Source: Alphaproteobacteria bacterium
GTDB lineage: Bacteria > Pseudomonadota > Alphaproteobacteria > JAAXGF01
DNA length: 64,000 bases
Direction of reading: 5' to 3'
Assembly (NCBI GenBank): GCA_963555825.3
Contig: CAUVXB020000002.1
Span: 1,632,001-1,696,000, forward strand
Made by a program: the position numbers and the translations under genes. Shown one piece after another: positions 2,191-34,475 of this stretch. Every line of letters begins with the position of its first letter. The first letter of the stretch is position 1. The notes under the pieces are model-generated. The model was not told the DNA's origin. It searched no databases and saw only the letters and a list, made by a program, of their open reading frames with translations.

Positions 2191-2320
2191 CTAACCCGCG
2201 CCAATCTTATCCCAACAAGAGGGCGGGCCGCCGACCGTTCGGCCAGCTTTGATTCCATAAGATTGGCATGCGCGGCGATTGAGCGCAGGTCGTCTTCACG
2301 AAGTGAAGGTGACCGGAAAA
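2191..2320 (-). repeat. Modular hairpin repeat, copy A (one internal unit, loop inverted)
   Basis: Reverse complement aligns by eye with the copies at 15465, 17799, 31517 and 34306 (GACCTGCGCTCAATCGCCGCGCATGCCAATCTT...TGGCCGAACGGTCGGCGGCCC...CTCTTGTTGGGATAAGATTGGCGCGGG). Confidence 0.9.
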
Positions 2321-2327
2321 TAATCTA

Positions 2328-3506
2328 GTGTCCCGATCGATAAATTGATATGATTATGTCTCTATTTGTTTTTAGGAGGCGCGATTGATGGCGAGAGTGG
2401 CGGTGACGATCTCTTTGAGCGATGACGAGCGCGCCGAATTGGAGGCGCTGTCTCGTCGTCGCAAGACGTCGCAGGGGCTTGCGCGGCGGGCTCGGATCGT
2501 CTTGGCGGCGGCGGAAGGGTTGGAGAACAAGGAGATCGCCGTTCGTCTCGAGGCGAGCGCGGACACCGTGGGCAAGTGGCGTCGCCGCTATGCGGCGGAG
2601 GGCCTCGACGGTCTGTACGACGAACCCCGCCCCGGCGCGCCGCGTCAAATCGGCGATGACGCCATCGCGGAAGCGGTCCGGCTGACGCTGGAAGAGACGC
2701 CGCCGGACGCGACCCATTGGAGCCTTCGCTCGATGGCGCGGGCGAGCGGCCACGCGCCCTCGACCATTCATCGCATCTGGCGGGCCTTCGGCTTGCAGCC
2801 GCATCGCTCGGAGACCTTCAAGCTGTCGAGCGATCCCTTCTTCGTGGAGAAGGTCCGCGACATCGTCGGTCTGTATTTGGCGCCGCCGGATCGTGCCCTG
2901 GTTCTCTGTGTCGACGAAAAGAGCCAGATCCAGGCCCTGGACCGTTCCCAGCCCCTCTTGCCGATGCGCCCCGGGCAGGCGGAGCGGCGCAGCCACGACT
3001 ACAAGCGCCACGGCACGACCTCTCTCTTCGCGGCCCTCGACATCGCCACGGGAGAGATCATCGGCAAATGTTTCCCGCGCCATCGGGCCCGAGAGTTCCG
3101 CAAATTCCTCGACCTCGTCGAGGCGAACGTCCCTGCTGATCTCGACATCCACATCGTCATGGACAACTACGGGACCCACAAGACCAAGGCGATCCGCGAC
3201 TGGTTCGCCAAACGGCCGCGCTGGCAGGCCCATTTCACACCCACCAGCGCCTCCTGGCTGAACCAGGTCGAGCGCTGGTTCGGGCTGCTGACCGACAAGC
3301 AGATCAGGCGCGGCGTCCATCGCTCCACCAAGGAGTTGGAGCGCACCATCCTCGACTACATCGACACGACAAACCAGAACCCCAAACCCTTCAAATGGAC
3401 CAAATCCGCCGATGACATCCTCGGCGCCATCCAGCGCTTCTGCCTCCGAACAATCGAAATCGCTGAACAGCAGGCGAAAATCATGCGAACTTCGGAATCG
3501 GGACAC
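2328..3506 (+). mobile_element. IS630-family insertion sequence, complete copy 1
   Basis: Terminal IRs GTGTCCCGAT / ATCGGGACAC, each flanked by TA within CTAG (2325-2328 and 3506-3509). Confidence 0.95.
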
Positions 3507-3509
3507 TAG
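2388..3509 (+). CDS. IS630-family transposase
   Basis: HTH N-terminus with THWSLRSMA, and DDE motifs [18 protein letters not shown] and [19 protein letters not shown]. Confidence 0.97.
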
Positions 3510-5380
3510 TGCAGGACCCGCCTGGTCCTCGCGCGGTGGCGTGGCGCCACCGCCGCATCGTCGTCGAACAGGTCGGCGAGCTGGTCGAGCATGACGCCGC
3601 CGAGTTGCTCGGCGTCGACCAGGGTGACCGCGCGGCGGTAGTAGCGCGTCACGTCGTGGCCGATGCCGACGGCGATCAGCTCGACCGGCGAGGTCGCCTC
3701 GATCCAGTCGATGACCTCGCGCAGATGGCGTTCGAGGTAATTGCCGCTGTTGACAGAGAGCGTCGAATCGTCGACCGGCGCGCCGTCCGAGATGACCATC
3801 AAAATGCGCCGCTGCTCGGGCCGTCCGAGCAGACGTTGATGCGCCCACATGAGCGCCTCGCCGTCGATGTTCTCCTTGAGGATGCCCTCGCGCAGCATCA
3901 GGCCGAGGTTCTTGCGCGCGCGCCGCCAGGGCGCGTCGGCCGCCTTGTAGACGATATGGCGGAGATCGTTGAGCCGCCCCGGGTTGGCCGGCTTGCCGTC
4001 GGCCAGCCAGTGCTCGCGCGCCTGGCCGCCCTTCCACGCCCGCGTCGTGAAGCCGAGGATCTCGACCTTGACATCGCAACGCTCGAGCGTGCGCGCAAGG
4101 ATATCGGCCGACAGCGCGGCGACGGTGATCGGCCGGCCGCGCATCGAGCCCGAATTGTCGATCAGCAGCGTCACCACCGTATCGCGGAAATCGCTCTCCT
4201 TCTCCTGCTTGTACGAGAGCGGCATTTCGGGGTTGACGATGACGCGGGCGAGCCGCGCGGCGTCGATGATGCCTTCCTCGAGATTGAATTCCCAACCGCG
4301 CGACTGCTTCGCCAGCAGCATGCGCTGAAGCCGGTTGGCGAGGCGCGCGGTGACGCCCTGCAGTTGGGCGAGCTGGAGGTCGAGCTGGGTCCGCAGGCGG
4401 CTGAGCTCGCCCGGCTCACACAGCGAATCGGCGGTGACGACCTCGTCGAACGCGGCGCTGTACACATGGTAGGTCGGCTTGCGGCGCTCATTGGCGCCGC
4501 TCCAATCGGGGCGCCAGGGCTGGTCGGCGTGGCCGGCTTCCTCCGAGCCCGAACCGGCCATCTGGTCGTCGATCTCGCCGGCCTCGGCCGCGCTGTCGCT
4601 GGTCTCCTGGTCGTCGTCGCCAGACGCGGCGAATGCCTCGAGACCAGCCGCCTCGGCGCCCTCCGCATCGCCTTCGCCTTCGCCGCCCTGGGCCTCGGCG
4701 TCGTCGCCGGCGCCTTGCGACTCGGCGTCGTCGGCCGCGTCGGGATCGCTTTCGGGCTCGGCCAGATCGAGCTCGGCCAGGAGCTGGCGCGCCATGCGCG
4801 CGAAGGCGTCCTGGTCCTCGATCGCCGCGTCGAGCCCGTCGAGCGTGTCGTGCGCCTTGGCCTCGATCAGCGGGCGGCACAGATCGACCATCTTGCGCGC
4901 CGGTTTGGGCGGGCGGGCGCCGGTCAGCCGCTGGCGTACCAGGAAGCCGATCGCCTCGGGCAGTGGTACGTCGTGGTAATGCGCGATGCGCTCGTAGCCG
5001 CGCGCCTTGCAGCGCTGCTCGAGCATCTCGCTCAGATTGGCCGCAACACCCTTGAGCTTACGCGCGCCGATCGATTCGACGCGCGCTTGCTCGACCGAAT
5101 CATAGACCGCCTGCGCGATGTCGCCGCCCGGGCGGCGCCTGGCGTGAACCGCGGTGTCGTGGTGGCGCAAGTGCAGCGCCAGCGCGTCGGCCAAGCCGCG
5201 CGTCCGGCTCACCGCCCCGGGCGCGAGATCGCGCGGCGGCGGCAGTGTCGCCTCGTCACCCTTGGCGCTGGGCGTCTCGCCCGAATAACTGACGACCAGC
5301 TCGCGATGCCGCGACAGCGCCCGCATCGCCGAGGCGACAGCGCGCTTGAACGGCTCGACCGGGTTCTCCCTGTCGTCCAC
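3506..5380 (-). CDS. cobT: Cobaltochelatase subunit CobT
   Basis: vWA motif [36 protein letters not shown] and an acidic linker. GTG start at 5380 inferred; follows cobS. Confidence 0.93.
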
Positions 5381-5390
5381 CCCACGTTCC

Positions 5391-14415: not shown

Positions 14416-14484
14416 CATCGGGCGCCCAACGCGGGATACCCCGGCGCCAGTTTGCCAATCACAATCGTCGTCGGGGGGAATGAC

Positions 14485-15459
14485 ATGAGCTTTCACATCG
14501 TCGAGCAGGCCACGCCCAGGCTGCACCGCAGCGAACTCGCCGTGCCCGGGAGCGAGACCAAGCTGTTCGAGAAGGCGGCCGCGTCGAGCGCGGACGTCGT
14601 GTTCCTCGATCTCGAGGACGCCGTCGCGCCCGACGACAAAGTGCAGGCGCGCAAGAACGTCATCGAGGCGGTCAACGATATCGACTGGAGCGGCAAGACC
14701 ATCACCATTCGCGTCAACGGCCTCGACACCCATTTCATGTACCGCGACGTGGTCGACGTCGTCGAGCAGACCGGCGGCAGGCTCGACATGATCATGATTC
14801 CCAAGGTCGGCAACGCCGCCGACGTCTATGCGCTCGACATGATGGTGACGCAGATCGAGGACGCCATGGGCTATGATAAGCGCATCGGCTTCTCGCTGAT
14901 CATCGAGACCGCGCTGGGCATGGAGAACGTCGGCGCCATCGCCGGCGCCAGCCCGCGCAACGAGGCGCTGCACTTCGGCGTCGCTGATTATGCCGCCTCG
15001 ACCCGGGCGCGTACGACCAACATCGGCGGCGTCAGCCCGGGCTATGTCGTCTTGACCGATCCGGACGACGACGGCGGGCGCGAGACCCACTGGGGCGACA
15101 TGTGGCACATGGCCGTTGCGCGCATGGTGGTCGCCGCGCGCGCCCACGGCCTGCGCCCGATCGACGGCCCGTTCGGCGACTTCAAGGACGCCGACGGCTA
15201 TCGCGCCGCGGCGCACCGCGTGGCGGCGCTCGGCTGCGAGGGCAAATGGGCGATCCACCCGTCGCAGATCGCGCTCGCCAACGAGGTGTTCAGCCCGTCC
15301 GACGCCGAGATCGACAAGGCGCACCGCATCATCGAGGCGATGGCCCAGGCGGCGCGCGACGGCAAGGGCGCGGTCTCGCTCGACGGCCGGTTGATCGACA
15401 TCGCCTCGATCCGCCAAGCCGAGGCGCTGGTCAAGAAGGCCGAGATGATCGCGGGTTAG
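14485..15459 (+). CDS. mcl: L-malyl-CoA/beta-methylmalyl-CoA lyase (CitE family)
   Basis: MSFHIVEQATPRLHRSELAVPGS, FLDLEDAVAPDDK and GKWAIHPSQI closely resemble Methylobacterium-type MclA as recalled. TTGACA at 14412 is a candidate promoter. Confidence 0.88.
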   Translation: MSFHIVEQATPRLHRSELAVPGSETKLFEKAAASSADVVFLDLEDAVAPDDKVQARKNVIEAVNDIDWSGKTITIRVNGLDTHFMYRDVVDVVEQTGGRLDMIMIPKVGNAADVYALDMMVTQIEDAMGYDKRIGFSLIIETALGMENVGAIAGASPRNEALHFGVADYAASTRARTTNIGGVSPGYVVLTDPDDDGGRETHWGDMWHMAVARMVVAARAHGLRPIDGPFGDFKDADGYRAAAHRVAALGCEGKWAIHPSQIALANEVFSPSDAEIDKAHRIIEAMAQAARDGKGAVSLDGRLIDIASIRQAEALVKKAEMIAG

Positions 15460-15464
15460 AGTTT

Positions 15465-15584
15465 TTGTGCGGCCATCTTTGGTGACCTGCGTTCAGTCGC
15501 CGCGCAAGCCACTCTTTATCCCACAAGGATTGGCCGGACGGTCGACGGCCCCCCTCTTGTCCCAATAAGACTGGCGCGGGCTGG
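15465..15584 (+). repeat. Modular hairpin repeat, copy B (one unit, 15508-15527)
   Basis: Aligns with the other four copies and starts about 5 nt after the mcl stop. Confidence 0.9.
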
Positions 15585-15668
15585 CGGAATTCCATCTACG
15601 TTCGGGCTCGTTGCCCGGGAACGATTACAATCGTTCCCGGCGCGGCGCTGTGTTAACAAATTCAGATC

Positions 15669-21073: not shown

Positions 21074-22283
21074 TCAGGCGGTCGACCTCGTCGAGCGTGT
21101 TGTAGTGCACCATCGAGACGCGCACGACGCCGTCCTGGTCACGCAGGCCCAAGGTGTCGATCAATCGGGCGGCATAGAAATCGCCCTCGCGGACGGTGAC
21201 CTTGTGGGGGATGAGGCCGGCGACGATGTCGGCCGATGAGCGGCCCTCGACGACGAAGGAGATGGTCGGCGCGCGCAGCGCCGGGTCGCCGGTCGGCCGC
21301 CCGATGATGCGGACGTTCGGCTTCGAGTTCAGGTAATCGACGAGGCGTGTCGCGAGCGTCGCCTCGTGGGCCTCGACCAAGCCGAAGACCTCGCCGAGGC
21401 GTTCGCGCAGGTCGGCGTTCGAGCCCGGGAAGTGGTGCGCGTGGACGGCGTCGAAATAGTCGATGATGCCGGCCGGGCCACAGGTGATGTCGTGGTTGTA
21501 GCCGCCCAGCGTCAGCTTGCCGGGGATCTGGTCTTCCGCATAGAAATAATGGTTCTGACTGTGCGCGGCGAGCAGATGCGCGCGCTTGCCGTACATCACG
21601 CCCATGTGGGGCCCGTAGAGCTTGTAGAGCGAGAAGGCGTAGAAATCGACGTCGGTCGCCATGACGTCGAGCCGGCGGTGCGGCGCGTAGGCCACGGCAT
21701 CGACGCAGACCAGCGCGCCGGCGTCGTGCACCAGCCGCGTGATCGCGGCGACGTCCTGGATCGAGCCGGTGACGTTCGAACAATGCGTGAAGCAGACCAG
21801 CCGGGTGCGCTCGGTCAGCAGCGCCTCGAGATCGGCAATCTCGAGGTCGCAACTCGCGGTGTCGACCCGCCATTCCACAACCACGACGCCGATCTCGGCG
21901 AGCCGGCGCCAGGCGCCCGAGTTGGCCTCGTGGTCGAGGTCGGTGACGATGACCTCGTCGCCCGGCGCGAACCAGGGCCGAAGCGCGTGCGACAGCACGA
22001 ACATGTTGACCGTCGTCGAGGGCCCGAAGACGACCTCGTCGGGCGAGGCGTTGATCATCTCGGCGACCAGGCGGTGCGACAGCGCGTGGTGCTCGGCGGC
22101 CTCGGCCGAGGCCGGGTAGGCGGTGCCCGGCTGGACCCGGTTTTGGACCAGATGGCGGGTGATGCGGTCGATCACCGTCCGCGGCAACAGGCTGCCGCCG
22201 GCGTTCTCGAAGAACGCCCAATCGTCGATACCCGGGAACTGGCCGCGGACGAAATCGACATCGAGTCGGCCGGCGCTGGTTAT
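21048..22283 (-). CDS. Class-V PLP enzyme (cysteine desulfurase-like) with an apparent ATA start; possibly a pseudogene
   Basis: DHEANSGAW, HCSNVTG, DAVAYAPH, SLYKLYGPH and RVSMVHYN. The conserved N-terminus LDVDFVRGQFP...FENAGGS is upstream of the first TTG and begins at ATA 22283. Confidence 0.82.
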   Translation of the reverse strand: MTSAGRLDVDFVRGQFPGIDDWAFFENAGGSLLPRTVIDRITRHLVQNRVQPGTAYPASAEAAEHHALSHRLVAEMINASPDEVVFGPSTTVNMFVLSHALRPWFAPGDEVIVTDLDHEANSGAWRRLAEIGVVVVEWRVDTASCDLEIADLEALLTERTRLVCFTHCSNVTGSIQDVAAITRLVHDAGALVCVDAVAYAPHRRLDVMATDVDFYAFSLYKLYGPHMGVMYGKRAHLLAAHSQNHYFYAEDQIPGKLTLGGYNHDITCGPAGIIDYFDAVHAHHFPGSNADLRERLGEVFGLVEAHEATLATRLVDYLNSKPNVRIIGRPTGDPALRAPTISFVVEGRSSADIVAGLIPHKVTVREGDFYAARLIDTLGLRDQDGVVRVSMVHYNTLDEVDRLITGLDELF

Positions 22284-23443
22284 TTCGTTTCCCCTTCGAC
22301 GTCACGGTGCTCGCGCGCGACGACGAAGCACTCGTTGTTGAACCACAGGCCCTTGTGTTCGGCCAACACCCGGCTGGTCGCCTCGAGATAGTCGCCGTGG
22401 GTCATCGCCTCGGTCAGCCGGTCGTCCTCGATCTGGGCGACGTAGACGGCGGCGTTCCAGGCCGCCAGCAGGGTCGAGGTGCCGATGCTGCTGGCGACCT
22501 CACGCGACGAAATCTGCAGGTGGTAGCGAAATTCGCAGTCGTCGCCGTGGTGATAGACGAAGCCGTCGTCGCCGAGTTGGTCGCGCATCGCGGCCACCAG
22601 CATGCCGCGCGGCGTCTGGAACGGATCCTCGCCGGGCCACACGGCGCGCACGATTTCCATGCCCGGATCGTCGCCCGCCGACTGGATGACGATCATCCGC
22701 CCACCCGGCGCGAGCGACTTGGCAAGCGGCGCCAGCACGGTGCGCGCCTTGGCCTCGGCCGAGCTGCGCGCGCGGTAGGGCTGCGAGACGATGACCAGAT
22801 CGTAGGCGTGATCGATGTCGCCCTTGCGCGGGATCACCGCGGACAGCGCGAAGCGCTGGTCGGCGCGGTAGAAGACCAGCACCGAGGGCGTGACGTAGTG
22901 CGGGTTGCCGGTGCGCTTGCCCGGCGTCGTGCGCCAGCCGTCGTTGACGAAGCCGAGCTGGGCCTTGATCTGGGCGTCGAACTCGTGCGCCGAGGCGCCG
23001 TCGAGCGCGACCTCGCGCCAATTTAGTCGCTCCTGGGCCTCGGGCTTGTGCGGCATCAGCCAGGGCGCCTCGACGTAATAGAGGTTGGTGATCACCATGA
23101 CCATCTGCGGGTGCTCGTAGAAGCGGTCGGCCAGCTTGTCGAGGCAGATGCGCACGTCCTCGGCCGAGATCTCCTTGCCGACGACGAAGAACGGCACCGT
23201 CGGCATGGTGTGGTGCAGGTCGCGCAGCACCATCGAGAGCACCGTGCCGTCGCCCATGCCGGCGTCGAAGACGCCGAGCGCCGGCGGGCTGGGTCTGAGC
23301 TCGTCGACCTCGCGGCCGATGCGATCGGCGGCCACCTGCTTCTCCGAGCAGGTGGTGACGAACATCAGGTACTTCTCGCGGTTGTCGAAGAAGCGGAACG
23401 GCCGGTCGTCGGCGGCCGTCGCACCGGTGGTCGGTTCATCCAT
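22280..23443 (-). CDS. Conserved hypothetical protein, SAM-methyltransferase-like fold
   Basis: FRFFDNREKYLMFVTTCSEK, FDAGMGDG (motif-I-like) and LAPGGRM. Host codon usage. Confidence 0.75.
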   Translation of the reverse strand: MDEPTTGATAADDRPFRFFDNREKYLMFVTTCSEKQVAADRIGREVDELRPSPPALGVFDAGMGDGTVLSMVLRDLHHTMPTVPFFVVGKEISAEDVRICLDKLADRFYEHPQMVMVITNLYYVEAPWLMPHKPEAQERLNWREVALDGASAHEFDAQIKAQLGFVNDGWRTTPGKRTGNPHYVTPSVLVFYRADQRFALSAVIPRKGDIDHAYDLVIVSQPYRARSSAEAKARTVLAPLAKSLAPGGRMIVIQSAGDDPGMEIVRAVWPGEDPFQTPRGMLVAAMRDQLGDDGFVYHHGDDCEFRYHLQISSREVASSIGTSTLLAAWNAAVYVAQIEDDRLTEAMTHGDYLEATSRVLAEHKGLWFNNECFVVAREHRDVEGETK

Positions 23444-23473
23444 GGCGCAGCCTCCCCGTGAACGCCCGGTTGG

Positions 23474-26197
23474 TCAGGCCATCCGGCCGTGGCAGTGTTT
23501 GTACTTCTTGCCCGAGCCGCAGGGGCAACGCTCGTTGCGCCCGACCTTGCCCCAGGTTGCCGGGTCGCCCGGGATGCGTTCGTCGGCCGCGACGCGGGAG
23601 CCGACCGCGGCGGTCACCCGGCTCGGCCGCATCATACCGACCCGGTCCTCGCCATTGCCGCGCCGGTTCTCCGCCGTCCGGCGCGGCGGCGCCTGCGGCG
23701 TCATGTCGCCTTCGGGCGGGGCGACGCGCAGCTCGAGATGGGCGAGCACCATGGTGATCGATTCGCGGAAGCGCGACAGCAGGCTCTCGAACATGTCGAA
23801 CGCCTCGCGCTTGTATTCGTTCAAGGGATCGCGCTGGCCATAGGCGCGCAGGCCGATGCCCTCGCGCAGGTGGTCGAGCGAGAGCAGGTGGTCCTTCCAG
23901 GTCTCGTCGAGGATCTGCAGCAGCAGGGTCTTCTCGGCCACGCGCATGATCTCGGGGCGGTAGCGTGCGACCTTCTCGGCCATCGCGCGGTCGGAGGCCT
24001 CGAACAAGCGCTCGCGGATCTCCTCGTCGGCGATGCCCTCTTCCTTGCTCCAGTCCTCGATCGGCAGGTCGAGGCCGAGAACGCGCAATGTGTCGGCGTG
24101 CAGGGCGCCGACCTCCCACTGCTCGGCATAGGCCTTCTCGGGGATGAAGGTGGCGACCATGTCGTCGATCACCGCATGGCGCATGGCGACGACCTCGTCG
24201 GAGACGTCGTCGGTGCTCATCAATTCGATGCGCTGCTCGTAGATCGCCTTGCGCTGGTCGTTCATGACGTCATCGAACTTGAGCAAGTTCTTGCGAATTT
24301 CGAAATTTCGCGCTTCGACCTTCGACTGGGCCTTCTCGATCGCCTTGTTGATCCACGGGTGGATGATCGCCTCGCCCTCTTCGAGACCGAGCTTCTGCAG
24401 CATGCTGTCCATGCGCTCGGACCCGAAGATGCGCATCAGGTCATCCTCGAGCGAGAGATAGAAGCGCGACGCGCCGGGATCGCCCTGGCGGCCCGAGCGG
24501 CCGCGCAGCTGGTTGTCGATGCGCCGGCTCTCGTGGCGCTCGGTGCCGACCACATAGCAGCCGCCGGCGGCGATCACCTTGGCCTTGTCGTCGGCGATCT
24601 CGGCCTCGATCTGGCTGATACGCCTGGCGCGCTCGGCTTCGTCCTCGACGCCGTCGAGTTCATGTCGGATGCGCATGTCGCGGTTGCCGCCGAGCTGGAT
24701 GTCGGTGCCGCGGCCGGCCATGTTGGTGGCGATCGTCACGTTGCCGCTGACGCCGGCCTGGGCGATGATGTAGGCCTCCTGCTCGTGATAGCGCGCGTTG
24801 AGCACGTTGTGCGGGATCTTGCGCTTCTTGAGCATCGCCGACAGGCTCTCGGACTTCTCGATGCTGACCGTGCCGACGAGCATCGGCTGGCCGCGCTCGC
24901 GGCATTCCTCGATCAGGTCGCAGACCGCCTGGAACTTCTCGCCTGAGGTCCGATAGACCTCGTCGTCCTCGTCGTCGCGCACGCAGGGCAGGTTGGTCGG
25001 CATCTCGATCACGTCGAGGCCGTAGATGTCGCCGAACTCGGCCGCCTCGGTCATCGCCGTGCCGGTCATGCCGGCGAGCTTGGGGTAAAGCCGGAAGTAG
25101 TTCTGGAAGGTGATCGAGGCGAGCGTCTGGTTCTCGTTCTGGATCGAGACGCCTTCCTTGGCCTCGAGCGCCTGGTGCAGGCCCTGCGAGTAGCGCCGGC
25201 CCTCCATCATGCGGCCGGTGAACTCGTCGATGATGATGACCTTGTCGTCCTTGACGATGTAGTCGGTGTCGCGCTCGAACAGGTTGTGGGCGCGCAGCGC
25301 CTGGTTGACGTGGTGCACGACCGAAACGTTCTGGATGTCGTAGAGGTTATCGCCCTCGAGTTGGCCGGCGTCGCGCAACAGACCCTCGATGCGCTCGGCG
25401 CCGGCGTCGGTCAGCGACACCGCCTTGGCCTTCTCGTCCTTCTCGTAGTCGTCCGGGCCCAGCTTGGGCATGAACTTGTCGATCTCGACGTAGAGTTCGG
25501 AGTTCTCCTCGGTCGGACCCGAGATGATCAGCGGCGTGCGCGATTCGTCGATCAGGATCGAATCGACCTCGTCGACGATGGCGTAGTTGAAGGGCCGCTG
25601 GACCATGGCGTCCAGCCTGTGCTTCATGTTGTCGCGCAGATAGTCGAAGCCGAATTCGTTGTTGGTGCCGTAGGTGACGTCGCAGGCATATTGCTGGCGC
25701 CGTTCGTCGTCGATCAGGCCGTGGACGATGCAGCCCACCGTGAGGCCGAGGAACCGGTAGATCTGGCCCATCCACTCGGCGTCGCGCTGCGCCAGGTAGT
25801 CGTTGACCGTGACGACGTGGACGCCCTTGCCCTCGAGCGCGTTGAGATAGACCGCCAAGGTGGCGACCAGGGTCTTGCCTTCGCCGGTCTTCATCTCGGC
25901 GATCATGCCCTGGTGCAGCACCATGGCGCCGAGCAGCTGGACGTCGAAATGGCGCTGTCCGAGCGTGCGCTTGGCCGCCTCGCGCACCACCGCGAAGGCG
26001 TCGACGAGCACGTCGTCGAGCGCTTCGCCGCCGGCCAACCGCTCGCGCAGCGCGGGCGTCTGGGCGGCGAGCTCGTCGTCCGTGAACGCCTCGAACGCGG
26101 CCTCGCGTTGGTTGACGGTCGCGACCGTGTCATCGAGCGTTTTGAGAATGCGATCGTTGGCGGTGCCGAACATCCGCCGCGCCAGAGCGCCGAACAT
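23474..26197 (-). CDS. secA: Preprotein translocase SecA
   Basis: [30 protein letters not shown] and [18 protein letters not shown]. Confidence 0.98.
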
Positions 26198-26395
26198 GAG
26201 TGCTGGGTGACCCTTGGAAAAGCCTGACTGCCGGCGCACAAGCGGTGCCGACGGCCCACAGATAATCAACCACGCGCGGACTGTCAACGACCGGCCCGAT
26301 CACCCGGTCCCGGACCGGCGCGGCCGGTACCGCTTGTCTCGTCCTTGGACGATGTGCAAGATGCGGTTCTCTGCTCATCGTCGATGGATGCCGCC

Positions 26396-27628
26396 ATGCC
26401 GCCGCTGTCTCCTCTGGCGCCCGCCGCCTTTCCGGCGATGCCGCCGGTCGCCGGCGTGCGTCTCGCGACCTGCGAGGCCGGCGTGCGCTATCACGGGCGG
26501 ACCGATCTCACGCTCGTCGAACTGGCGGCCGGCACCACGGCGGCCGGTGTCCTGACGCGCTCGAAGACCGCCGCCGCGCCGGTCGACTGGTGCCGCGCGG
26601 CGCTCGCCGACGGCCTCGGCCGGGCGCTCGTCGTCAGCGCCGGCAACGCCAACGCCTTCACCGGCCGGGCCGGCGACGCCGCGGTCCGACACACCGCCGA
26701 GTCGGCCGCCGCGTTGTTCGGGGCGGCGTCCGAGGACGTCTTCATCGCCCAGACCGGCGTAATCGGCGAGCCGATGGACGCCGACAAGATCGTGACTGCC
26801 CTGCCGGGCCTCAGGGCCGCGCTCGACGCCGGCGCGTGGCACCAGGCCGCGCGGGCGATCATGACGACCGACACCTTCGCCAAGGGCGCCAGCGCCAGCG
26901 CGCGGATCGACGGCCACACCGTCACGATCAACGGCATCGCCAAGGGCTCGGGCATGATCGCGCCCGACATGGCGACCATGCTCGCCTTCGTCTTCACCGA
27001 CGCGCGGCTGCCATCGGCGGTGCTGCAGAACATGCTGAGCCGCGCCAACCAACGCTCGTTCAACGCCATCACGGTCGACGGCGACACCTCGACGAGCGAC
27101 ACGCTGCTCGCCTTCGCGACCGGCCGGGGGCCGGCGCACGGCCCGGTGACGCGGCTCGGCGACGCGCGGCTCAAGGGATTCCGCAAGGCGCTCGAGGCCG
27201 TCCTCGTCGACCTCGCCCACCAGGTCGTGCGCGACGGCGAGGGCGCGCAGAAGTTCATCGCCGTCACCGTGACCGGCGCCACATCGCGCAAGGCGGCGCG
27301 GCGCATCGCCCTGTCGATCGCCAACTCGCCCTTGGTCAAGACAGCGATCGCCGGCGAGGACGCCAACTGGGGGCGCATCGTCATGGCGGTCGGCAAGGCG
27401 GGCGAGAAGGCCGACCGCGACCGCCTGGCGATCCGCATCGGCGGCGTCGTGGTCGCCGAAGACGGCGTCGTCCACCCGGATTACGTCGAGGCCGAGCTGG
27501 TGCCCCATATGAAGGGTCAAGAGATCGACATCGAGGTCGACGTCGGTGTCGGGCGCAGCCGCGCGACGGTCTGGACCTGCGACCTGACCCACGGCTACAT
27601 CGACATCAACGCCGACTACCGCAGCTAG
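26396..27628 (+). CDS. argJ: Ornithine acetyltransferase / N-acetylglutamate synthase
   Basis: [28 protein letters not shown] and [15 protein letters not shown]. Confidence 0.97.
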
Positions 27629-27635
27629 CGGTGTG

Positions 27636-28187
27636 ATGTCGTTCCAACCCATCGAAACCGACCGACTGGTCGTGCGTGCGCTGGAACCGGCCGACGCCCC
27701 GGCCATGCACCGGCTGATCGGTGAGTGGGAGGTTGCGCGAATGACGGCGAACGTTCCGCATTCCTACGAAGCCGGCATGGCCGAGGACTGGATCACACGA
27801 TCGGCTGGCCTGCTCGAGGCGGGTGAGGCCTACAATCTCGCCGTCGTGCATCGCGACGTGCCCGGCCTGATTGGTTCGGTCGGCCTTGGCCTGCCCGAAC
27901 GGCGTGCGCCGGTGCTCGGCTACTGGATCGGGCGTCCCTACTGGGGCCGGGGTTTTGCGACCGAGTCGGCGGGCGGCTTGGTCGCCTTCGGCTTCGACGC
28001 GCTCGGCTTCGAGAAGATCACCGCGAGCGTGTTTCCCGAGAACCCGGCGTCCGCACGCGTGCTGGAAAAGCTTGGCTTCGTCCGCACCGGCCACGCAATG
28101 CACGACGCGCCGGCGCGCGGCGCGCGGCAGGAGGTCGACACCTACGAGCTGAGCCGCGTCGACTTCGAGGCGCGCTGCGATGGCTGA
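27636..28187 (+). CDS. GNAT (RimJ/RimL-like) acetyltransferase
   Basis: IETDRL, LGYWIGRPYWGRGFATE and NPASARVLEKLGF. Confidence 0.9.
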   Translation: MSFQPIETDRLVVRALEPADAPAMHRLIGEWEVARMTANVPHSYEAGMAEDWITRSAGLLEAGEAYNLAVVHRDVPGLIGSVGLGLPERRAPVLGYWIGRPYWGRGFATESAGGLVAFGFDALGFEKITASVFPENPASARVLEKLGFVRTGHAMHDAPARGARQEVDTYELSRVDFEARCDG

Positions 28188-28590
28188 CGCGCGCCCCGTC
28201 GTGCTGGTCGCCGCGGTCGCCATGATCGACCCGGACGGCCGCGTGCTGCTCGCGCGGCGCCCCGAGGGCAAGTCGATGGCGGGGCTGTGGGAGTTTCCCG
28301 GCGGCAAGGTCGAGGCGGGCGAGACGCCCGAGGCGGCGCTCGACCGCGAGCTGCGCGAGGAGCTCGGTGTCGAGATCTGCGTGCCCTGTCTTGCGCCGCT
28401 CAGCTTCGCCTCGCACGCCTACGACGACTTCCACCTGTTGATGCCGCTCTACAGCCTGCGCAAGTGGGACGGCATCGCGCGCCCGCGCGAGGGTCAGGAA
28501 CTCGCCTGGGTGCGCCCCGAACGCCTGCGCGACTACGCCATGCCGCCGGCCGACGCGCCCTTGGTGGCGGCATTGCAGGATCTGCTGTAG
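28180..28590 (+). CDS. mutT: 8-oxo-dGTP diphosphatase (Nudix)
   Basis: WEFPGGKVEAGETPEAALDRELREELG Nudix box and PPAD. Confidence 0.92.
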   Translation: MADARPVVLVAAVAMIDPDGRVLLARRPEGKSMAGLWEFPGGKVEAGETPEAALDRELREELGVEICVPCLAPLSFASHAYDDFHLLMPLYSLRKWDGIARPREGQELAWVRPERLRDYAMPPADAPLVAALQDLL

Positions 28591-28599
28591 GGCCGCCCT

Positions 28600-29019
28600 T
28601 CAGCCTCGGGTCAACGCTTCGACGGCTTGGCGCAAAGCCATTACGTCTGTCGGATGAAGCGATCCCATGATCAAGCGGTCGCCGCCGGGTCTTACCGTGA
28701 AAAATTGGATTGCCCACGGTAGCCGGACGGTCCGTCCCAGATCGAATTTGGTTGCGAGATCGAGGCCGGCGGCGCGCCTACCGGAGGGCGTGGCGACCAG
28801 GAACTCGCCTTTATACAGCCGGTCCGTCTTCTTGCTCGTGCCGAACGCCACCTCGACCGAACTGCGGCTCGTGCGGCGGCCCAGGAAAACGGCGCGAACG
28901 ATGGCTGGACGCGGCTTGGGGCCCGGTTTGTCGGGCATCTCGCGAAACGGGAAGCGGCACCAGACGACATCGCCCGGCCGAGGCAGCGTCGTTGGGTCGT
29001 AACACTCGTAGCTTACCAA
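28600..29019 (-). CDS. Putative PemK/MazF-like toxin
   Basis: PRPGDVVWCRFP...PGPKPRPAIV...VAFGTS pattern. TTG start overlaps the upstream gene's stop; atypical codon usage. Confidence 0.7.
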   Translation of the reverse strand: MVSYECYDPTTLPRPGDVVWCRFPFREMPDKPGPKPRPAIVRAVFLGRRTSRSSVEVAFGTSKKTDRLYKGEFLVATPSGRRAAGLDLATKFDLGRTVRLPWAIQFFTVRPGGDRLIMGSLHPTDVMALRQAVEALTRG

Positions 29020-29285
29020 AGCGACGGGCCGAGCCGTTCCTCGCCGTCGAAACTGCTTTCGGGGAATTGATTGCGAAGCCAGGCGATCTGCGCGTCGGTC
29101 AGCGGCCCGTCGTCGGCGAGCGCCGTATGCCCTTCCCGTTCGCGCTCGTGGACCAGCGCGCTCATGATGAAGTCACGAAGCGACATGTTCCGAGACCGCG
29201 CGAGCGCCATGGCTTCATCCTTGGTGATCGGTGCCTCGGGCGAGCGATCGAAGCGCAAAGTATAAGCATTCTTGGGGGTGGCCAT
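29013..29285 (-). CDS. Putative antitoxin (RHH-like N-terminus, acidic C-terminus)
   Basis: 90 aa with a beta-strand YTLRF, then helices, then DDGPLTDAQI. Directly upstream of and overlapping the toxin-like gene. Confidence 0.6.
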   Translation of the reverse strand: MATPKNAYTLRFDRSPEAPITKDEAMALARSRNMSLRDFIMSALVHEREREGHTALADDGPLTDAQIAWLRNQFPESSFDGEERLGPSLW

Positions 29286-29310
29286 TGACACATCATGCCC
29301 TATTGGCGCT

Positions 29311-29331
29311 TAGATGTCTATTAGATATCTA
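29311..29331. promoter_or_regulatory. Tandem palindromic operator upstream of the TA pair
   Basis: TAGATGTCTA-T-TAGATATCTA in an AT-rich patch about 25 nt upstream of the antitoxin ATG. Confidence 0.6.
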
Positions 29332-29357
29332 CAACATTCAGATTATGGCGGTCCGCT

Positions 29358-30233
29358 TTACGGCGTCGCCTTGTCGCCGGCGGGCCGCTCCTCGGCGTCG
29401 AGCGCGTCGGCCAGGCGCGCGCGCGCGCTGCCCGGCGCCAGCGGCTTCTGCTGCGTCTCGTGGGGCGCCCAGCCGGTCAGGAAGACGATCTGGAAGGTCG
29501 CCCGGATGCGGCCGTCCTGGTCGGCGTGGTTGGCGTGATAATGCTCGGCCATGGCCATCAGCGTAGCGCGCCGGGTGAAGCGCTTGCGTCGCTCGTTGGC
29601 CGCGTTGGTTTCGCCCATGCCGCGCAGCTCGCGCATCAGGGCGAAGGCGTCCGGGTAGCTCACCGTGATGCTGTCGAGGTCGACGACCGGCAGGGCGAAG
29701 CCGGCGCGCTGCAGCAAGGCGCCCGCGTCGCGCACGTCGACCAGCGGCGCGACGCGCGGGCTCGCGCCGCCTTCCTCGGCGATCTCGGCCGCCGCCCATG
29801 ACGCGCGCAGCTCGTGCAGCGTGTCGCCGCCGAACATGGCGGCCAGCAACAGGCCGTCGGGCTTGAGCGCGCGGCGGAGCTGCACCAGCGCGCCGGGCAG
29901 GTCGTTGACCCAGTGCAGCGACAGCAGGCTGACCGCCAGGTCGAAGGAAGCGTTGGCGAAGGGCAGCAGCGCCTCGTCGGCCGCGACCGGTCCGTGGTCG
30001 GCCACGGTGCCGCAGCGCAGCACGCGGCCGATGCCGCCGCGGCCCGCCGCCAGGGCAGCGTGATGGCCGAGATCGAGCGCGACGGGAAAACTGCGGCGCA
30101 CGTCGTCGAGCCGGCCGGCGAGCCGCTCGGCGATCTCGCGCACGAGAAAGTCGTGCGAGCCGAAGTCCGGCGCGGCGCGCGCGCGGTGGCGGCGCACCGC
30201 GGCGGGATCGAAGACGTCGATGGCGTCGCCCAT
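29358..30233 (-). CDS. SAM-dependent methyltransferase (BioC/NDUFAF5-like)
   Basis: ADEALLPF, SLHWVNDLPG, GGDTLHELR, LQRAGFALPVVD and LAPGSA. Confidence 0.9.
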   Translation of the reverse strand: MGDAIDVFDPAAVRRHRARAAPDFGSHDFLVREIAERLAGRLDDVRRSFPVALDLGHHAALAAGRGGIGRVLRCGTVADHGPVAADEALLPFANASFDLAVSLLSLHWVNDLPGALVQLRRALKPDGLLLAAMFGGDTLHELRASWAAAEIAEEGGASPRVAPLVDVRDAGALLQRAGFALPVVDLDSITVSYPDAFALMRELRGMGETNAANERRKRFTRRATLMAMAEHYHANHADQDGRIRATFQIVFLTGWAPHETQQKPLAPGSARARLADALDAEERPAGDKATP

Positions 30234-30298
30234 GACGCCACTATAACCCGACGGCGCCGACGTGCTAAACGTCGCGCAGCGATACCGAAGGGGATGCC

Positions 30299-31513
30299 AT
30301 GGCGCGACGCATCGCGATCGTCGGCGGCGGGGTGATCGGCGCGAGTGTCGCCTGGCATCTGGCGGCGGCCGAGGCCGGCGAGATCGTGCTGGTCGAGCGC
30401 GCGACGCTTGGCGCCGGTTCGACCTGGCATTCGGCCGGCAACATCACCTGGTCGGCGCGCAACGACGGGCCGGTGCTGGCCACTCTCGAGGCGGCCGAGA
30501 CGGTTGCCCGCGAGGCCGACCAGGCGACCGGCTGGCTCAGGACCGGCCGTCTGTTCCTGGCGCGCAAGCCCGAGACGCTCGATGACTTTACCGATTCGAT
30601 GCGCATTGCCGAGCAACGCGGCTACGGATCGCGACTGCTCAGCCCCGCCGAGGCGGCGCGCCACCACCCGCTGCTCGATCCCGGCGCGATCGCCGGCGCC
30701 TGGCTCAACGGCCTGTCGGGCCGGCTCAACCCGGCCGACCTGACAGCGGCCTATGCGCGCGCGGCGCGCCGACGCGGCGTCGTGCTGCGCGAGGGCTGCA
30801 CGGTCACCGGCCTGGTAACCCGGGGCGGCCGCATCGCCGGGTTCGACACGGCCGACGGGCGCATCGATGCCGATGTCGTGGTCGTCGCCGCCGGGCTGTG
30901 GTCGCGCCGTTTCCTGGCCGGCGCCGGCGTCGCGCTGGCGCAGTGGGGCTGCGAGCATTTCTACCTCATCGCGCGGCCCGAACCGGCGCTCGCCCCGGCG
31001 ACGCCATCGTTCGTCTCGCCCGAGGATTCGATTTACGGTCGCGAGGAGATCGGCGGCATGCTCTACGGCTTCTTCGACGCCGACGCCAAGACGCTGGACG
31101 CCGGCGACGGCGCGCCGCCCGACAACTTTACCTTCTCGCTGCTCGACGAGGACTGGGACAAGATCGCGCCTTATGCAGAACGCGCGATGCAACTATTTCC
31201 GGCGCTCGAGCACGCGCCGGTCACGCGCTTCGTCAACGGCCCGGAGGCCTTCACGCCCGACGGCGAGCCGCTGGTCGGCCCGGTCGGTGGCATCGACGGG
31301 CTGTTCGTGGCGAGCGCCATGAACTCGGCGGGCGTCACGCTCTCGGGCCTCGCCGGGCGTCTCATCGCAGATGCCGTGACCGGCGCGAAACCACGTCTCG
31401 ACCCCGCGCCCTATGCGGCCGACCGCTTCGGTGAGCGGGCGTCCGACGAGGCTTGGCTGCGCGCGGCGGTCACCCAGACCCCGAGCAGCCACTACCGGTT
31501 CAGCCAAACGTAA
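30299..31513 (+). CDS. FAD-dependent oxidoreductase, dimethylglycine/sarcosine dehydrogenase-like flavin domain only
   Basis: IVGGGVIG, GSTWHSAG and NGPEAFTPDG. No GcvT-like C-terminal domain. Confidence 0.85.
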   Translation: MARRIAIVGGGVIGASVAWHLAAAEAGEIVLVERATLGAGSTWHSAGNITWSARNDGPVLATLEAAETVAREADQATGWLRTGRLFLARKPETLDDFTDSMRIAEQRGYGSRLLSPAEAARHHPLLDPGAIAGAWLNGLSGRLNPADLTAAYARAARRRGVVLREGCTVTGLVTRGGRIAGFDTADGRIDADVVVVAAGLWSRRFLAGAGVALAQWGCEHFYLIARPEPALAPATPSFVSPEDSIYGREEIGGMLYGFFDADAKTLDAGDGAPPDNFTFSLLDEDWDKIAPYAERAMQLFPALEHAPVTRFVNGPEAFTPDGEPLVGPVGGIDGLFVASAMNSAGVTLSGLAGRLIADAVTGAKPRLDPAPYAADRFGERASDEAWLRAAVTQTPSSHYRFSQT

Positions 31514-31516
31514 CTA

Positions 31517-31656
31517 TTGTGCGGTCACCTTTGGTGACCTGCGCTCAATCGCCGCGCAAGCCAATCTTTATCCCACAAGGCCATTCTTGATCCCATAAGG
31601 ATTGGCCGAACGGTCGGCGGCCCCCCTCTTGTTGGGATAAGATTGGCGCGGGCTGG
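31517..31656 (+). repeat. Modular hairpin repeat, copy D (two units, 31560-31599)
   Basis: Aligns with the other copies and starts 3 nt after the oxidoreductase stop. Confidence 0.93.
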
Positions 31657-31724
31657 AAGTTTCAGTTCGAGCCTATATCAGGCGGAAGCCTTTGCTCTCG
31701 ATGAAAGCGTCGAAGTCGCCGCGC

Positions 31725-32030
31725 TCAATCGCCGTCGAGTGCGTAGAACCGATCCTCCCAGGCGCGCCGCTGGTGCTCGAGCCACGCCGCGGTGGCGCGC
31801 AGCCGATCGGGGTCGAGACGGCAGCGGTGCACGCGGCCGTCGCGTTCGCGCCTGATCAGCCCGGCGTGCTCGAGCAGCTTGAGGTGCTTGGAGACCGCCG
31901 GCAGCGACATGTCGAAGGGCGCCGCCAGCGCGCCGACCGTGGCGTCGCCCTCGGCGAGGCGCGCGAGAATGGCGCGCCGCGTCGCGTCGGCGAGCGCCGC
32001 GAAGGCCGTGTCGAGACTATAGTTAACCAT
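31725..32030 (-). CDS. ArsR/SmtB-family regulator
   Basis: FAALADATRRAIL and MSLPAVSKHLKLLEHAGLI. Confidence 0.88.
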   Translation of the reverse strand: MVNYSLDTAFAALADATRRAILARLAEGDATVGALAAPFDMSLPAVSKHLKLLEHAGLIRRERDGRVHRCRLDPDRLRATAAWLEHQRRAWEDRFYALDGD

Positions 32031-32043
32031 TAAGTTAACTATA
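32018..32043. promoter_or_regulatory. Inverted-repeat operator over the ArsR start codon (probable autoregulation)
   Basis: TATAGTTAAC-cattaa-GTTAACTATA, perfect 10-bp arms. Confidence 0.75.
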
Positions 32044-32120
32044 TGTGATGATCGTTGGTCTGTCGAGCCGTCCAGCCGCCGCGCTTGACGCGGGGCCGGG
32101 GGCGGCGCGCATACTGGGTC

Positions 32121-32879
32121 ATGTTGCCGCCCGAGACATCGTCCGGGGCGCCCCGGCGCTGGGGTGCCGCGCTGCTCGATGCGCTGTTGCCGCTGCGCTG
32201 CCTGGCCTGCCCGGCGCCGGTCGACCGGCCGGGCCGGCTGTGCCCGCGCTGCTGGACCGGCGTCGATTTCATCACGCCGCCGAACTGCGCGCTATGCGGT
32301 TTCCCGTTCGACGTCGACGAGGGGCCGGATGCGCTGTGCGGCGCCTGCACCGCGACGCCGCCCGACTTCGACCATGCCCGGTCCGCGGTGCGCTATGCCG
32401 GCGTCGGGCGCGAGGTCGTGCTCGGCCTCAAGCACGGCGACCAGACCCACGCGGCGCTGTCGCTCGCCCAACTGATGATGCGCGTCGGTGGCGCGTTGCT
32501 CGCCGACTGCGACGCGGTCGTGCCGGTGCCGCTGCACCGCTTCCGCCTGTTCGCGCGGCGCTACAACCAGTCGGCGCTGATCGGCGGCGCGCTGGCGCGC
32601 CTCGCCGGCGTCGATTTCGTACCCGATCTGCTCAAGCGCACGCGGCCGACGCCGAGCCAGGCCGGCCGCACCCGGCGCCAGCGCTTTGAGAACATGCGCG
32701 GCGCCTTCGCCGTGCGCGCCAAGCGCCGCACCCTGTCCGACGGCCGCCATCTGGTACTGGTCGACGACGTCATGACCACCGGCGCGACGGCCGGCGCCTG
32801 CGCCAAGGCGCTCAAGCGCGCCGGCGCCGTCCGCGTCGACGTCCTCAGCTTCGCCCGTGTGGTGCCCGGGCACGAGTGA
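32121..32879 (+). CDS. comF: ComF-family protein (double Zn ribbon + PRTase)
   Basis: Four CxxC pairs, VPVPLH, RRYNQS and LVDDVMTTGAT. Confidence 0.92.
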   Translation: MLPPETSSGAPRRWGAALLDALLPLRCLACPAPVDRPGRLCPRCWTGVDFITPPNCALCGFPFDVDEGPDALCGACTATPPDFDHARSAVRYAGVGREVVLGLKHGDQTHAALSLAQLMMRVGGALLADCDAVVPVPLHRFRLFARRYNQSALIGGALARLAGVDFVPDLLKRTRPTPSQAGRTRRQRFENMRGAFAVRAKRRTLSDGRHLVLVDDVMTTGATAGACAKALKRAGAVRVDVLSFARVVPGHE

Positions 32880-32935
32880 CATTATGATAGAATACAAACT
32901 GCGGTCGCGTGCCGTGTGACGTTGGAGGGAATTCG

Positions 32936-33793
32936 ATGAGCGGGAAGTTCAAGGTCGCGTTGGTGCAGAACTGCGCGGCGGGCGACATGGCGGCGAATGT
33001 CGCGGCGGTGAGCGATCTGGTGCGTCGGGCGGCCGAGGCCGGGCCCCACCTGATCGCGCTGCCCGAGCATGTTTCCTACATGGATTCGCGGACCGAGAAC
33101 TGGCACGCGCATGCGCTGCCGGTCGCCGAGCATCCGGCGTACCACGCCTTCCAGGCGCTGGCGCGCGAGGTCGGCGCGTGGCTGCTGGTCGGCTCGCTGC
33201 CGGTGCGCGCGGGCGATGGCCGCATCGCCAACTGCTCGTTCCTGTTCGACGACGCTGGCGCGCGCGTCGCGCATTATGAGAAGATCCACATGTTCGACGT
33301 CGATCTGCCGACCGGCGAGCGCTTCCGCGAGAGCCAGGACTTCCAGCCGGGCGAGGCGGCGCGGCTGGCGGCGACGCCGTGGGGCACGCTCGGCATGACG
33401 ATCTGCTATGATCTGCGTTTCGCCGCGCTCTACCGCGCGCTGGCGCAGGCTGGCGCCGAGTTCCTGAGCGTGCCGTCGGCGTTCACCAAGGTGACCGGCG
33501 CGGCGCATTGGCACCTTCTGCTGCGCGCCCGGGCGATCGAGAACGGCTGCTTCGTCATCGCGCCGTGCCAGGTCGGCCATCACTACGGCAACCGCCACAG
33601 TTTCGGCCACTCGCTGGTCATCGATCCGTGGGGCGAGGTGCTCGCCGACGGCGGCGAGGACATCGGCTTCGTCAGCGCCGAGATCGACCCGGCGCGTGTC
33701 GCCGAGGTGCGCGCCATGATCCCGAGCCTCGAGCACGACCGGCCGTTCAGCCCGCCCGATCGGGCGCGACCGCGCATATCCGCTGTATCATAG
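32936..33793 (+). CDS. Carbon-nitrogen hydrolase (Nit1-like amidase)
   Basis: [19 protein letters not shown] and RARAIEN (E-K-C triad). Confidence 0.93.
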
Positions 33794-34280
33794 CCGGCCT
33801 CGGCTCGCTCACCGCGACGTCCTCGAAGGCGACCACGCTGAGCCGGCCGAACACGACGTCCAATAGCTCGCCGCGTTCGAGCAGGTGGTCGGGGTTGCGC
33901 GGCCGGCCGAAGCGCTCGTTGCCGCGCGCGAAGGTCTCGTAGAGCAACACGCCGCCCGGCGCCACCGAGCGGATCAGCACCGGAAACAGCGGCCGATAGA
34001 GATAGTTGGTGACCACGACACCGCCGAAACGCGCATCACCAAGGGGCCAGGGCGCGCCGCTCTCGAGGTCGGCCTTGATGCGCGCGAGACCCGGCGCGTC
34101 GTCGAGCGTCATCTCGCGGTCGATCGCCGTCACCGGGTGGCCGCGCTCGAGGAACAGCCGGCTGTGGCGGCCGTTGCCGCAGGCGACGTCGAGCACGGAT
34201 TCGCCGGTTGGGACCAGCGCGGCGAAGCGCTCGACCCAGGTCGAGGGCGTCTCGAAGACATGCGCGCGATCGCGCCCCAT
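33747..34280 (-). CDS. Class I SAM-dependent methyltransferase
   Basis: VLDVACGNGRH, VVTNYLYRP and PGGVLLYETF. Overlaps the nitrilase 3' end by 47 nt. Confidence 0.88.
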   Translation of the reverse strand: MGRDRAHVFETPSTWVERFAALVPTGESVLDVACGNGRHSRLFLERGHPVTAIDREMTLDDAPGLARIKADLESGAPWPLGDARFGGVVVTNYLYRPLFPVLIRSVAPGGVLLYETFARGNERFGRPRNPDHLLERGELLDVVFGRLSVVAFEDVAVSEPRPAMIQRICAVAPDRAG

Positions 34281-34305
34281 CGGCGGACTCCTGAAAGTTA
34301 CTTCA

Positions 34306-34475
34306 TTGTACGGTCATCTTTACTGCGTAAAGCTGACCTGCGCTCAATAGCCGCGCATGCCACTCTTAATCCCACAAGGCCATTCTTAATCCCACAAGGC
34401 CATTCTTTATCCCACTAGGATTGGCCGAACGGTCGGCGGCCCCCCTCTTGTCCCAATAAGGTTGGCGCGGGCTGG
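34306..34475 (+). repeat. Modular hairpin repeat, copy E (three units, 34359-34418)
   Basis: Aligns with the other copies and lies between divergent genes. Confidence 0.93.

Follow-up and report, generated by a model that had tools for sequence, protein, structure and literature searches.

What are the five structured repeats that lie scattered over the 64,000-nt stretch of an Alphaproteobacteria bacterium analysed here (the window: positions 1,632,001 to 1,696,000 of contig CAUVXB020000002.1 in assembly GCA_963555825.3, or C2:1632001-1696000 in the coordinates used below)? An earlier note on this DNA had read them as copies of one undescribed modular element, mobile and selected for its structure as RNA or single-stranded DNA. 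We find that they are members of a family that counts about 190-200 copies in the 6.04-Mb host genome (two contigs, 65% G+C). The best explanation, to which we give as a whole a probability of roughly 0.75, is that this family is a lineage-specific, miniature, non-coding transposable element resembling MITEs (transposable elements of the miniature inverted-repeat kind), a new BOX-like modular family of a known kind of element.

The abundance of the repeat is far beyond chance. The 18-nt core of its second hairpin (H2) matches the genome 281 times at up to three mismatches, compared to 15 matches in the reversed genome, and 182 times at up to one mismatch, compared to none for the pattern written backwards. 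A genome-wide BLASTN search with the five window copies (the earlier note had proposed one with the left and right modules) gave 207 merged places. We kept for analysis the 199 anchors that either were followed by a recognisable chain of downstream modules or matched the core with at most one mismatch.

Tokenising the sequence 3′ of H2 at the 281 anchors yielded the grammar of the element, which in full order comprises TA, a short leader, H1, H2, zero to eight units of 20 nt, H3, either a short H4 or a right module R, H5, and TA. The leader TA(G)-N3-(c/t)ATTGTGC is conserved upstream of H1 in every gene-context class. H1 occurs in a 7-bp form, a 12-bp form or as unrelated stems such as GCAAAGCC...GGCTTTGC, often with a tandem half-copy in front. 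H3 reads GCCGA-ACGG-TCGGC and the short H4 reads CCCGC-nGTC-GCGGG, while R closes with GCGGGCTGG; units and R alike carry a core of 6-7 nt that is found in either polarity between constant CTT...AAG arms. H5 (about 35 nt) follows GGGCTGG in most copies and ends nC-TA-G. The commonest single architecture is the minimal form H2-H3-short H4 (52 of 281 anchors). Strict end patterns caught 70 left and 78 right ends of the 199 copies, and internal landmarks were used instead. The length from TA to TA is 138-198 nt in the 31 copies with both ends caught by these patterns; the size of the element is about 115-330 bp overall, longer arrays reaching about 330 nt. Both ends read TA followed by G--CAT--T-CG-TC, a short imperfect terminal inverted repeat (TIR): in 20 strictly delimited copies the left end agrees with the reverse complement of the right end at a mean of 7.95 of 18 positions, compared to 4.47 in letter shuffles, and none of 1000 shuffles reaches the observed value.

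The window copies, with the parts of copy C given separately, are as follows.

2172-2327, minus strand: copy A, with TA(G) at 2327-2325, a long H1, H2, one flipped-core unit, H3, a right module of ‘TTGGGA’ polarity and a degenerate H5; its right end is uncertain.
15457-15598, plus strand: copy B, with its TA in the TAG stop of gene 14452-15459, a degenerate H1, H2, one forward unit, H3, the right module, a shortened H5 and CTA at 15596-15598.
17795-18042, plus strand: the whole of copy C from TA to TA, the left TA inside the TAG stop of gene 16655-17797 and the right TA at 18041-18042.
17820-17836, plus strand: H1 of copy C, 7 bp with loop TTC, with a tandem half-copy of the 5′ arm in front (17802-17811).
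17837-17855, plus strand: H2 of copy C, TGCGC-N9-GCGCA, the most conserved core and the anchor of the census.
17857-17957, plus strand: unit array of copy C, five tandem 20-nt units in forward polarity.
17962-17975, plus strand: H3 of copy C, GCCGA-ACGG-TTGGC, with one G-T pair.
17983-18013, plus strand: right module R of copy C, CTCTTG-core-TAAG with the closing GCGGGCTGG, where minimal copies have a 4-nt H4 loop instead.
18013-18038, plus strand: H5 of copy C, a rare variant, CATCATCC...GGATGATG, overlooked in the earlier note.
31511-31675, plus strand: copy D, with its TA in the TAA stop of gene 30299-31513, a short H1, H2, two forward units, H3, a right module of ‘TTGGGA’ polarity, a shortened H5 and CTA at 31673-31675.
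34299-34500, plus strand: copy E, with TTA at 34298-34300, a long H1, H2, three forward units, H3 and the right module; its H5 is unrecognisable and its right end uncertain.

When each stretch was re-read, all five copies stood where the earlier note had placed them and in the layout it gave: GGTCACC-N3-GGTGACC or its extended form, TGCGC-N9-GCGCA, 1, 1, 5, 2 and 3 units in copies A to E, and a right part of GCCGA-ACGG-TCGGC, a C-run, CTTG-N6-TAAG and (T)GGCGCGGG. Tandem Repeats Finder returns the 20-nt period at 17857-17957, 31560-31600 and 34359-34419, with 5.1, 2.0 and 3.0 copies in C, D and E, respectively. The finer pairing features described there are equally real, namely the compensated H1 extension in copies A and E (CTTCAC/GTGAAG vs CTTTAC/GTAAAG), the G-T pair in H3 of copy C (GCCGA/TTGGC), and the complementarity of the right module to a unit in copies A and D. 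Its unit consensus does not hold for copy A, the unit core of which has the opposite polarity (ATGGAAT, not ATCCCAC). Its element ends were too short, as they left out the leader on the left and, on the right, hairpin H5 ending nC-TA; with the true ends in place, a short imperfect TIR and a TA duplication appear where neither a TIR nor a target-site duplication had been seen.

The copies are concentrated at the ends of genes. Genes were called on codon usage by a caller trained on the host genome (5482 calls, 82% coverage), an earlier caller based on a threshold of G+C at third codon positions having been dropped for covering only 57% of the genome. By these calls, 196 of the 199 copies are intergenic, and they are enriched between convergent genes: 82 lie between convergent, 17 between divergent and 97 between tandem neighbours, compared to 524, 723 and 1386 background intergenic regions of at least 100 bp. 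For 115 of the 199 copies, a co-oriented upstream gene ends within 130 nt of H2, and its stop codon is TAG in 73, TAA in 14 and TGA in 28, whereas the stops called genome-wide are 1677 TAG, 792 TAA and 3013 TGA. The offsets of these stops from H2 cluster at −47 to −38 and at −31/−30; to the right of the element, a distance of exactly 36 nt past CTGG is seen for 33 of 105 convergent stops. The terminal TA(G) of the element is thus often the stop codon of the neighbouring gene. In the window, the starts of copies B, C and D coincide with the stop codons of the genes for an HpcH-type aldolase, an AstE/AspA-like protein and a DAO oxidoreductase, and the right TA of copy C lies 2 nt before the end of a convergent AraC-type gene (18040-18837). 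As the genome is 65% G+C, the TA sites at which an insertion is tolerated are largely TAG and TAA stops, and the element often has G at its start and C at its end next to the TA, which re-forms a TAG at both ends; this would explain why copies pile up on stop codons, above all between convergent genes and in both orientations. Two observations on TAG and CTAG may be recorded here. TAG makes up 31% of the stop codons by our gene caller, which seemed high for this G+C content, and CTAG occurs 2617 times in the 6.04 Mb, by our own arithmetic several-fold less than base composition predicts; the ends of insertion sequences (ISs) and MITEs may contribute to this picture.

That the element moves, as the earlier note had proposed, is seen in filled and empty sites. 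Looking for places at which the two flanks of a copy directly adjoin gave, for the 199 copies, a single paralogous pair, in which the empty site reads CCTAG and the filled site CCTA-[element]-CCTA-G. Orthologous sites came from a metagenome scan with the H2 core, which gave 80 loci; for 75 of them the alignment to the host genome extends to 400 nt or more, and most of these are syntenic and 90-94% identical. Comparison with these contigs of a relative revealed 40 distinct indels, with the H2 core in the extra segment of 22. Six orthologous pairs are readable (L016, L043 at C1:113021, L065, L070 at C1:827222, L074 and L089), and, read by eye, the junctions of all six have one TA where the element is missing and a TA at either end of it in the filled allele; neighbouring bases are not consistently duplicated.

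Turnover between the host genome and the relative, which is about 92% identical, is clear. The relative's contigs carry 97 copies, of which 27 are too close to a contig end, 15 have flanks that do not both map and 5 are non-collinear. Of the 50 usable copies, 30 are shared and 20 lack the H2 core here, the interval being about 130-180 nt shorter; as the loci of the relative were fetched for carrying the element, ‘absent here’ is favoured and the direction of this imbalance is meaningless. At one of the loci (L028 vs C1:2342363), a full copy in the relative stands opposite a host sequence made up of CTAG, some 15 nt similar to the beginning of H5 and a further CTAG, perhaps the footprint of an excision or the product of an internal deletion. 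Contigs from public sequencing runs (three of DNA and one of RNA), compared with window positions 15000-34600, all break at repeat copies, with joints that link different copies; they are therefore uninformative on unit number, on presence or absence and on assembly artefacts.

The interior of the element is variable. Among the 199 copies, unit number is 0 in 82, 1 in 77, 2 in 26 and 3-8 in 14. The arrays comprise 60 in forward and 57 in flipped polarity and none of mixed polarity, and units are 90% identical within arrays compared to 76% between them. Unit polarity is independent of that of R (24 forward and 9 reverse R modules with forward units; 29 and 10 with flipped units), and yet units travel with R: where units are present, R is found in 72 copies and the short H4 in 31, and where they are absent, in 10 and 60, respectively. 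The counterpart in the relative of window copy C, with its five units and R, is a minimal copy that has the same rare H5 variant. A second orthologous pair has five forward units and R here vs one flipped unit and the short H4 in the relative; in a third, a short H1 with seven units here stands opposite a long H1 with no units, and the H5 variant is shared. As these module differences occur at orthologous loci with shared rare H5 variants, the interior changes at a fixed site. Slippage would add or remove 20-nt units, and the central cassette (units and R vs none) would be swapped, and the cores of the small CTT...AAG palindromes flipped, through gene conversion or template switching between copies. 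Alternatively, the element may be excised and another variant re-inserted at the same TA.

Despite this variability, stems H1, H4 and H5 clearly keep their pairing through compensatory changes. Double-compensated cells number 28 in H4, 75 in H5, 24 in the long H1, 18 in the short H1 and 6 in H2, compared to column-shuffle means of 5.2, 22.5, 3.8, 1.0 and 0.5, respectively, and in no case do any of 500 shuffles reach the observed count; these counts run over paralogous copies, so that an inherited change enters them repeatedly, and only perfect stems had been admitted to the H1 sets. The counting was done in Python, and the strict alignment filter passed only 19 of the 52 minimal copies. H3 is invariant and hence uninformative on covariation. 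The complementarity of the hairpin arms could be kept by the remodelling processes themselves, by selection on a folded strand of RNA or single-stranded DNA, or by palindrome correction at the DNA level; compensation is clear but comes with no orientation bias relative to transcription and only a weak excess of G.T over A.C pairs.

The same hairpins invite a reading in which the repeat is a functional structured RNA (a stabiliser in the 3′ untranslated region, a processing site or a terminator of the neighbouring genes) whose stems are selected in the transcript, mobility being secondary. We consider this improbable. Since copies start at or a few nucleotides from stop codons, many must be transcribed together with the upstream gene, and the compensatory changes in H1, H4 and H5 also speak for this reading. 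As RNA, copy D folds into H1, H2 and a long stem between unit and R with H3 as its cap (−77.4 kcal/mol), a more stable fold than its shuffles give (z = −4.07), and H5 stems on the element strand hold 101 G.T against 70 A.C pairs (87 copies, symmetric selection), a weak asymmetry. A contig from the RNA library extends from gene 16655-17797 into H1/H2 of copy C, but it may be DNA carry-over, and transcript ends are beyond its reach. Against a role in the transcript, copies between tandem genes show no orientation bias (43 sense vs 54 antisense), modules vary freely between orthologous loci, and the 20 of 50 mappable copies of the close relative that are missing here amount to 40%. Copies B-E, furthermore, contain no terminator-like site (8 such sites in 19.6 kb, compared to 8.6 in shuffles). 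The Rfam search, another check named in the earlier note, matched no family over the whole window at the gathering score, and at E-values up to 1 on 17700-18100 it returned a chance match outside the element only. We infer that the transposable element has no host function.

What moves the element? It inserts at TA, usually within YTAR, and duplicates the TA, and a transposase of the IS630/Tc1-mariner type, which is probably the mover, would act in trans, cutting and pasting at the short imperfect inverted ends. The title of a 1991 study by Tenzen and Ohtsubo, cited in PMC2170065, names TA within CTAG. The genome holds at least 150 matches to the DDE_3 domain, of several types, and one such IS lies next to copy A:

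2325-3509, plus strand: IS of type A, given for context only, a 1185-bp member of the IS630 family inserted at the terminal CTAG of copy A.

Its open reading frame (2385-3509) encodes a 374-aa transposase with DDE_3 and HTH domains, and the IS has the left terminal CTAG of copy A in common with the element. Type A has 68 full copies that are about 99.9% identical and without exception bounded by CTAG; several of them form head-to-tail arrays with an overlap of CTAG, and such near-identical copies and tandem arrays point to a very recent expansion. In passages of Feng and Colloms (2007, PMC2170065), the IS630 family is described as inserting at TA with duplication of the TA, and the target and duplication of our element fit that family. 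The ends of the resident ISs read TA followed by GTGTCC... in type A and TA followed by TACCA... in types B-D. Out of 16 comparisons between element and IS ends, the right end of the element against the left end of type A gave a local score of 12 (z = 4.3), and the other 15 were at background.

Several results weigh against this reading, apart from the limits on turnover and on compensatory counts stated above. None of the resident IS types A-D has the element's ends; the likeness to type A concerns one end only, in a register 5-6 nt further in, and arose in one of 16 comparisons. Neither an autonomous copy nor a gene-sized insert between element ends was found in the host genome: left and right ends 450-3500 nt apart form four pairs, of which the three in the host genome are two IS-interrupted copies and one pair of separate copies, and the fourth is in L025. 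The TIR is weak, agreeing at about 8 of 18 positions, and the gene positions rest on a home-made caller. Of the 21 orthologous indels of at least 100 nt, 15 are unreadable owing to divergence, remnants or short-repeat deletions (L044 is a deletion between CGGCCA repeats), which leaves seven clean junctions in all. A solver working on MAFFT gaps gave a TA duplication in only 3 of the 21, and an exhaustive gapless solver gave good flanks in 9 of 27, with TA in none; both fail because the intergenic flanks have diverged.

Some further observations concern the relation of the element to resident ISs. In 10 of its 68 copies, type A lies directly against an element end; CTAG sites outside gene bodies number 1675, and no preference is read from this proportion. 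A second type-A copy starts at about window position 63412 and runs off the window end. IS type B sits inside units or R, at TTA/TA, in several element copies. The copy at C2:1808364-1810206 is split inside the unit array by a 1.6-kb IS (43 megablast matches, 436-aa gene), and that at C1:178136-179249 inside H1 by an IS of about 0.85 kb (7 matches, 282-aa gene).

These last two ISs bear on a variant of the same explanation, in which the MITE is moved not by an IS630-type enzyme but by another transposase preferring YTAR, such as one of the IS5 type with its 3-4-bp duplication. Target sites do read CTAG, TTAG or CCTA, and abundant unclassified ISs, for example the 1.6-kb and the 0.85-kb one, are at hand in the genome. 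However, TA alone is duplicated in every readable junction: in L089 the left junction reads CTA-A and the right one TTA-G, and in the paralogous pair they read CTAA and CTAG, respectively. Judged by eye, these two unclassified ISs also have ends unlike those of the element, and we regard this variant as unlikely.

A different question is whether the flipping of cores and the swapping of the cassette are more than mutational noise. They could be a programmed DNA switch, an idea that draws on arrays never being mixed in polarity and on orthologous loci differing in polarity. Such a switch would toggle the pairing of units and R into a long hairpin around H3 and tune 3′-end processing or read-through of the two genes whose stops the element carries. 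We think this very unlikely.

REP, BIME and REPIN repeats of gamma-proteobacteria and RIME repeats of rhizobia are intergenic mosaics of palindromic modules enriched after genes. The family studied here shares that design, being hairpin-rich, intergenic and located at 3′ ends, and the genome has three PF01797 genes, so that spread on single-stranded hairpins by a RAYT (an HUH Y1 transposase), a lead raised in the earlier note, had to be considered; it is extremely unlikely, because these genes are 5.1, 35 and 24 kb away from the copies closest to them, each gene is flanked by an inverted repeat of its own (61, 46 and 44 occurrences) that shares no sequence with the family, the element has TA duplication and inverted ends, and its modules do not alternate in orientation as wholes, only the 6-7-nt cores being flipped. 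The three RAYT-like Y1 genes (C2:1866978-1867667, C1:1325258-1325878 and C2:2727579-2728112; L013-L015) are of interest in themselves: their flanking repeats, counted at up to two mismatches, include a classic GTAG-headed palindrome and represent three REP systems besides the family studied here.

Among known repeats, the transposable element proposed here is closest to pneumococcal BOX by design and to RUP and IS630-linked MITEs by insertion chemistry. BOX of Streptococcus pneumoniae (boxA-boxBn-boxC) is modular and forms stem-loops, its ends resemble those of a resident IS and its unit number varies between strains, according to the passages on it in Croucher et al. (2011, PMC3049150). As far as those passages describe it, the A-(B)n-C architecture is common to both, with a left module, a variable number of short tandem units, a right module and stem-loops, and here unit number differs at orthologous loci; the comparison, already drawn in the earlier note, holds as a likeness of design only, and the lineages are unrelated. 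The present family differs in its 20-nt units with two core polarities, its clear TA duplication, two further end hairpins, and a minimal form without units and right module. RUP, as portrayed in parts of the same paper (PMC3049150), is a small non-coding repeat for which an IS630-family transposase is the presumed mover in trans, with a TIR similar to that of IS630-Spn1. The likeness lies in a small non-coding repeat linked to IS630 and in the TA insertion and duplication described for that family in sections of PMC2170065. RUP, however, is a simple 107-bp unit with a TIR matching its IS, whereas the ends of the present family match those of no resident IS, and its interior is modular and variable. 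Correia elements duplicate TA as well. These elements, also called NEMIS, of Neisseria are short, bounded by inverted repeats, high in copy number, located next to genes and found as hairpins in transcripts, as summarised in part of PMC3049150. Their TIRs of 26 bp and fixed interior contrast with a weak TIR of about 15-18 nt and 0-8 units here. What distinguishes the present family is that it unites a BOX-like modular build with a TA duplication that can be read, along with a TAG re-formed on both strands, core flipping and cassette exchange at orthologous loci. The earlier note had not recognised the family, and literature searches aimed at such repeats, which did not cover supplements, gave no description of it.

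The family thus provides a well-resolved BOX-like modular repeat outside streptococci with an insertion mode that can be read as TA duplication. It explains the pile-up after genes, stops being the main tolerated TA sites in a G+C-rich genome and the termini re-forming TAG. Its turnover against the relative and its differing modules at orthologous sites show that such repeats are still producing variation between genes, in a genome already full of IS630-type elements. In annotation, the family is a marker of gene ends, and short-read assemblies break at each of its copies.

As to distribution, 12 stretches of species genomes contain the exact H2 core. Of the eight looked into, six hold complete elements (L001, L002, L006, L007, L008 and L009), and L003 and L012 have a bare core within unrelated sequence. 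Twelve other genomes of the same family and order have 0-3 core matches each, being fragmented assemblies and a weak guide to absence. In related contigs, complete elements are found that show compensated variants, such as an H3 of GCCGC-AGGG-GCGGC. L006 and L009 are contigs of public metagenome-assembled genomes that share flanks with copies here and so resemble orthologous loci from close relatives; the label is candidate division NC10 for one and Proteobacteria for the other, and NC10 may be a binning error. The public runs suggest a sponge-associated organism.

Two more MITE-like families are polymorphic between the host genome and the relative, at loci L016, L042 and L071 (vs C1:2097972, C2:3530204 and C1:1974546) and L036, L040, L045, L065 and L070. 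One is 176-266 nt long and has ends that begin with TACCAAGGATCAG, as in IS types B-D; the second family measures 269-537 nt and has ends containing CTTCTCACCATGGACAGG. In the window, lastly, a sigma-70-like match (TTGACG-16-CATAGT, 9 of 12 positions) lies at 34479-34506 on the plus strand, at the right edge of copy E and upstream of gene 34551-35009; in all, 19.6 kb contain 4 such matches, compared to 1.4 in shuffles.

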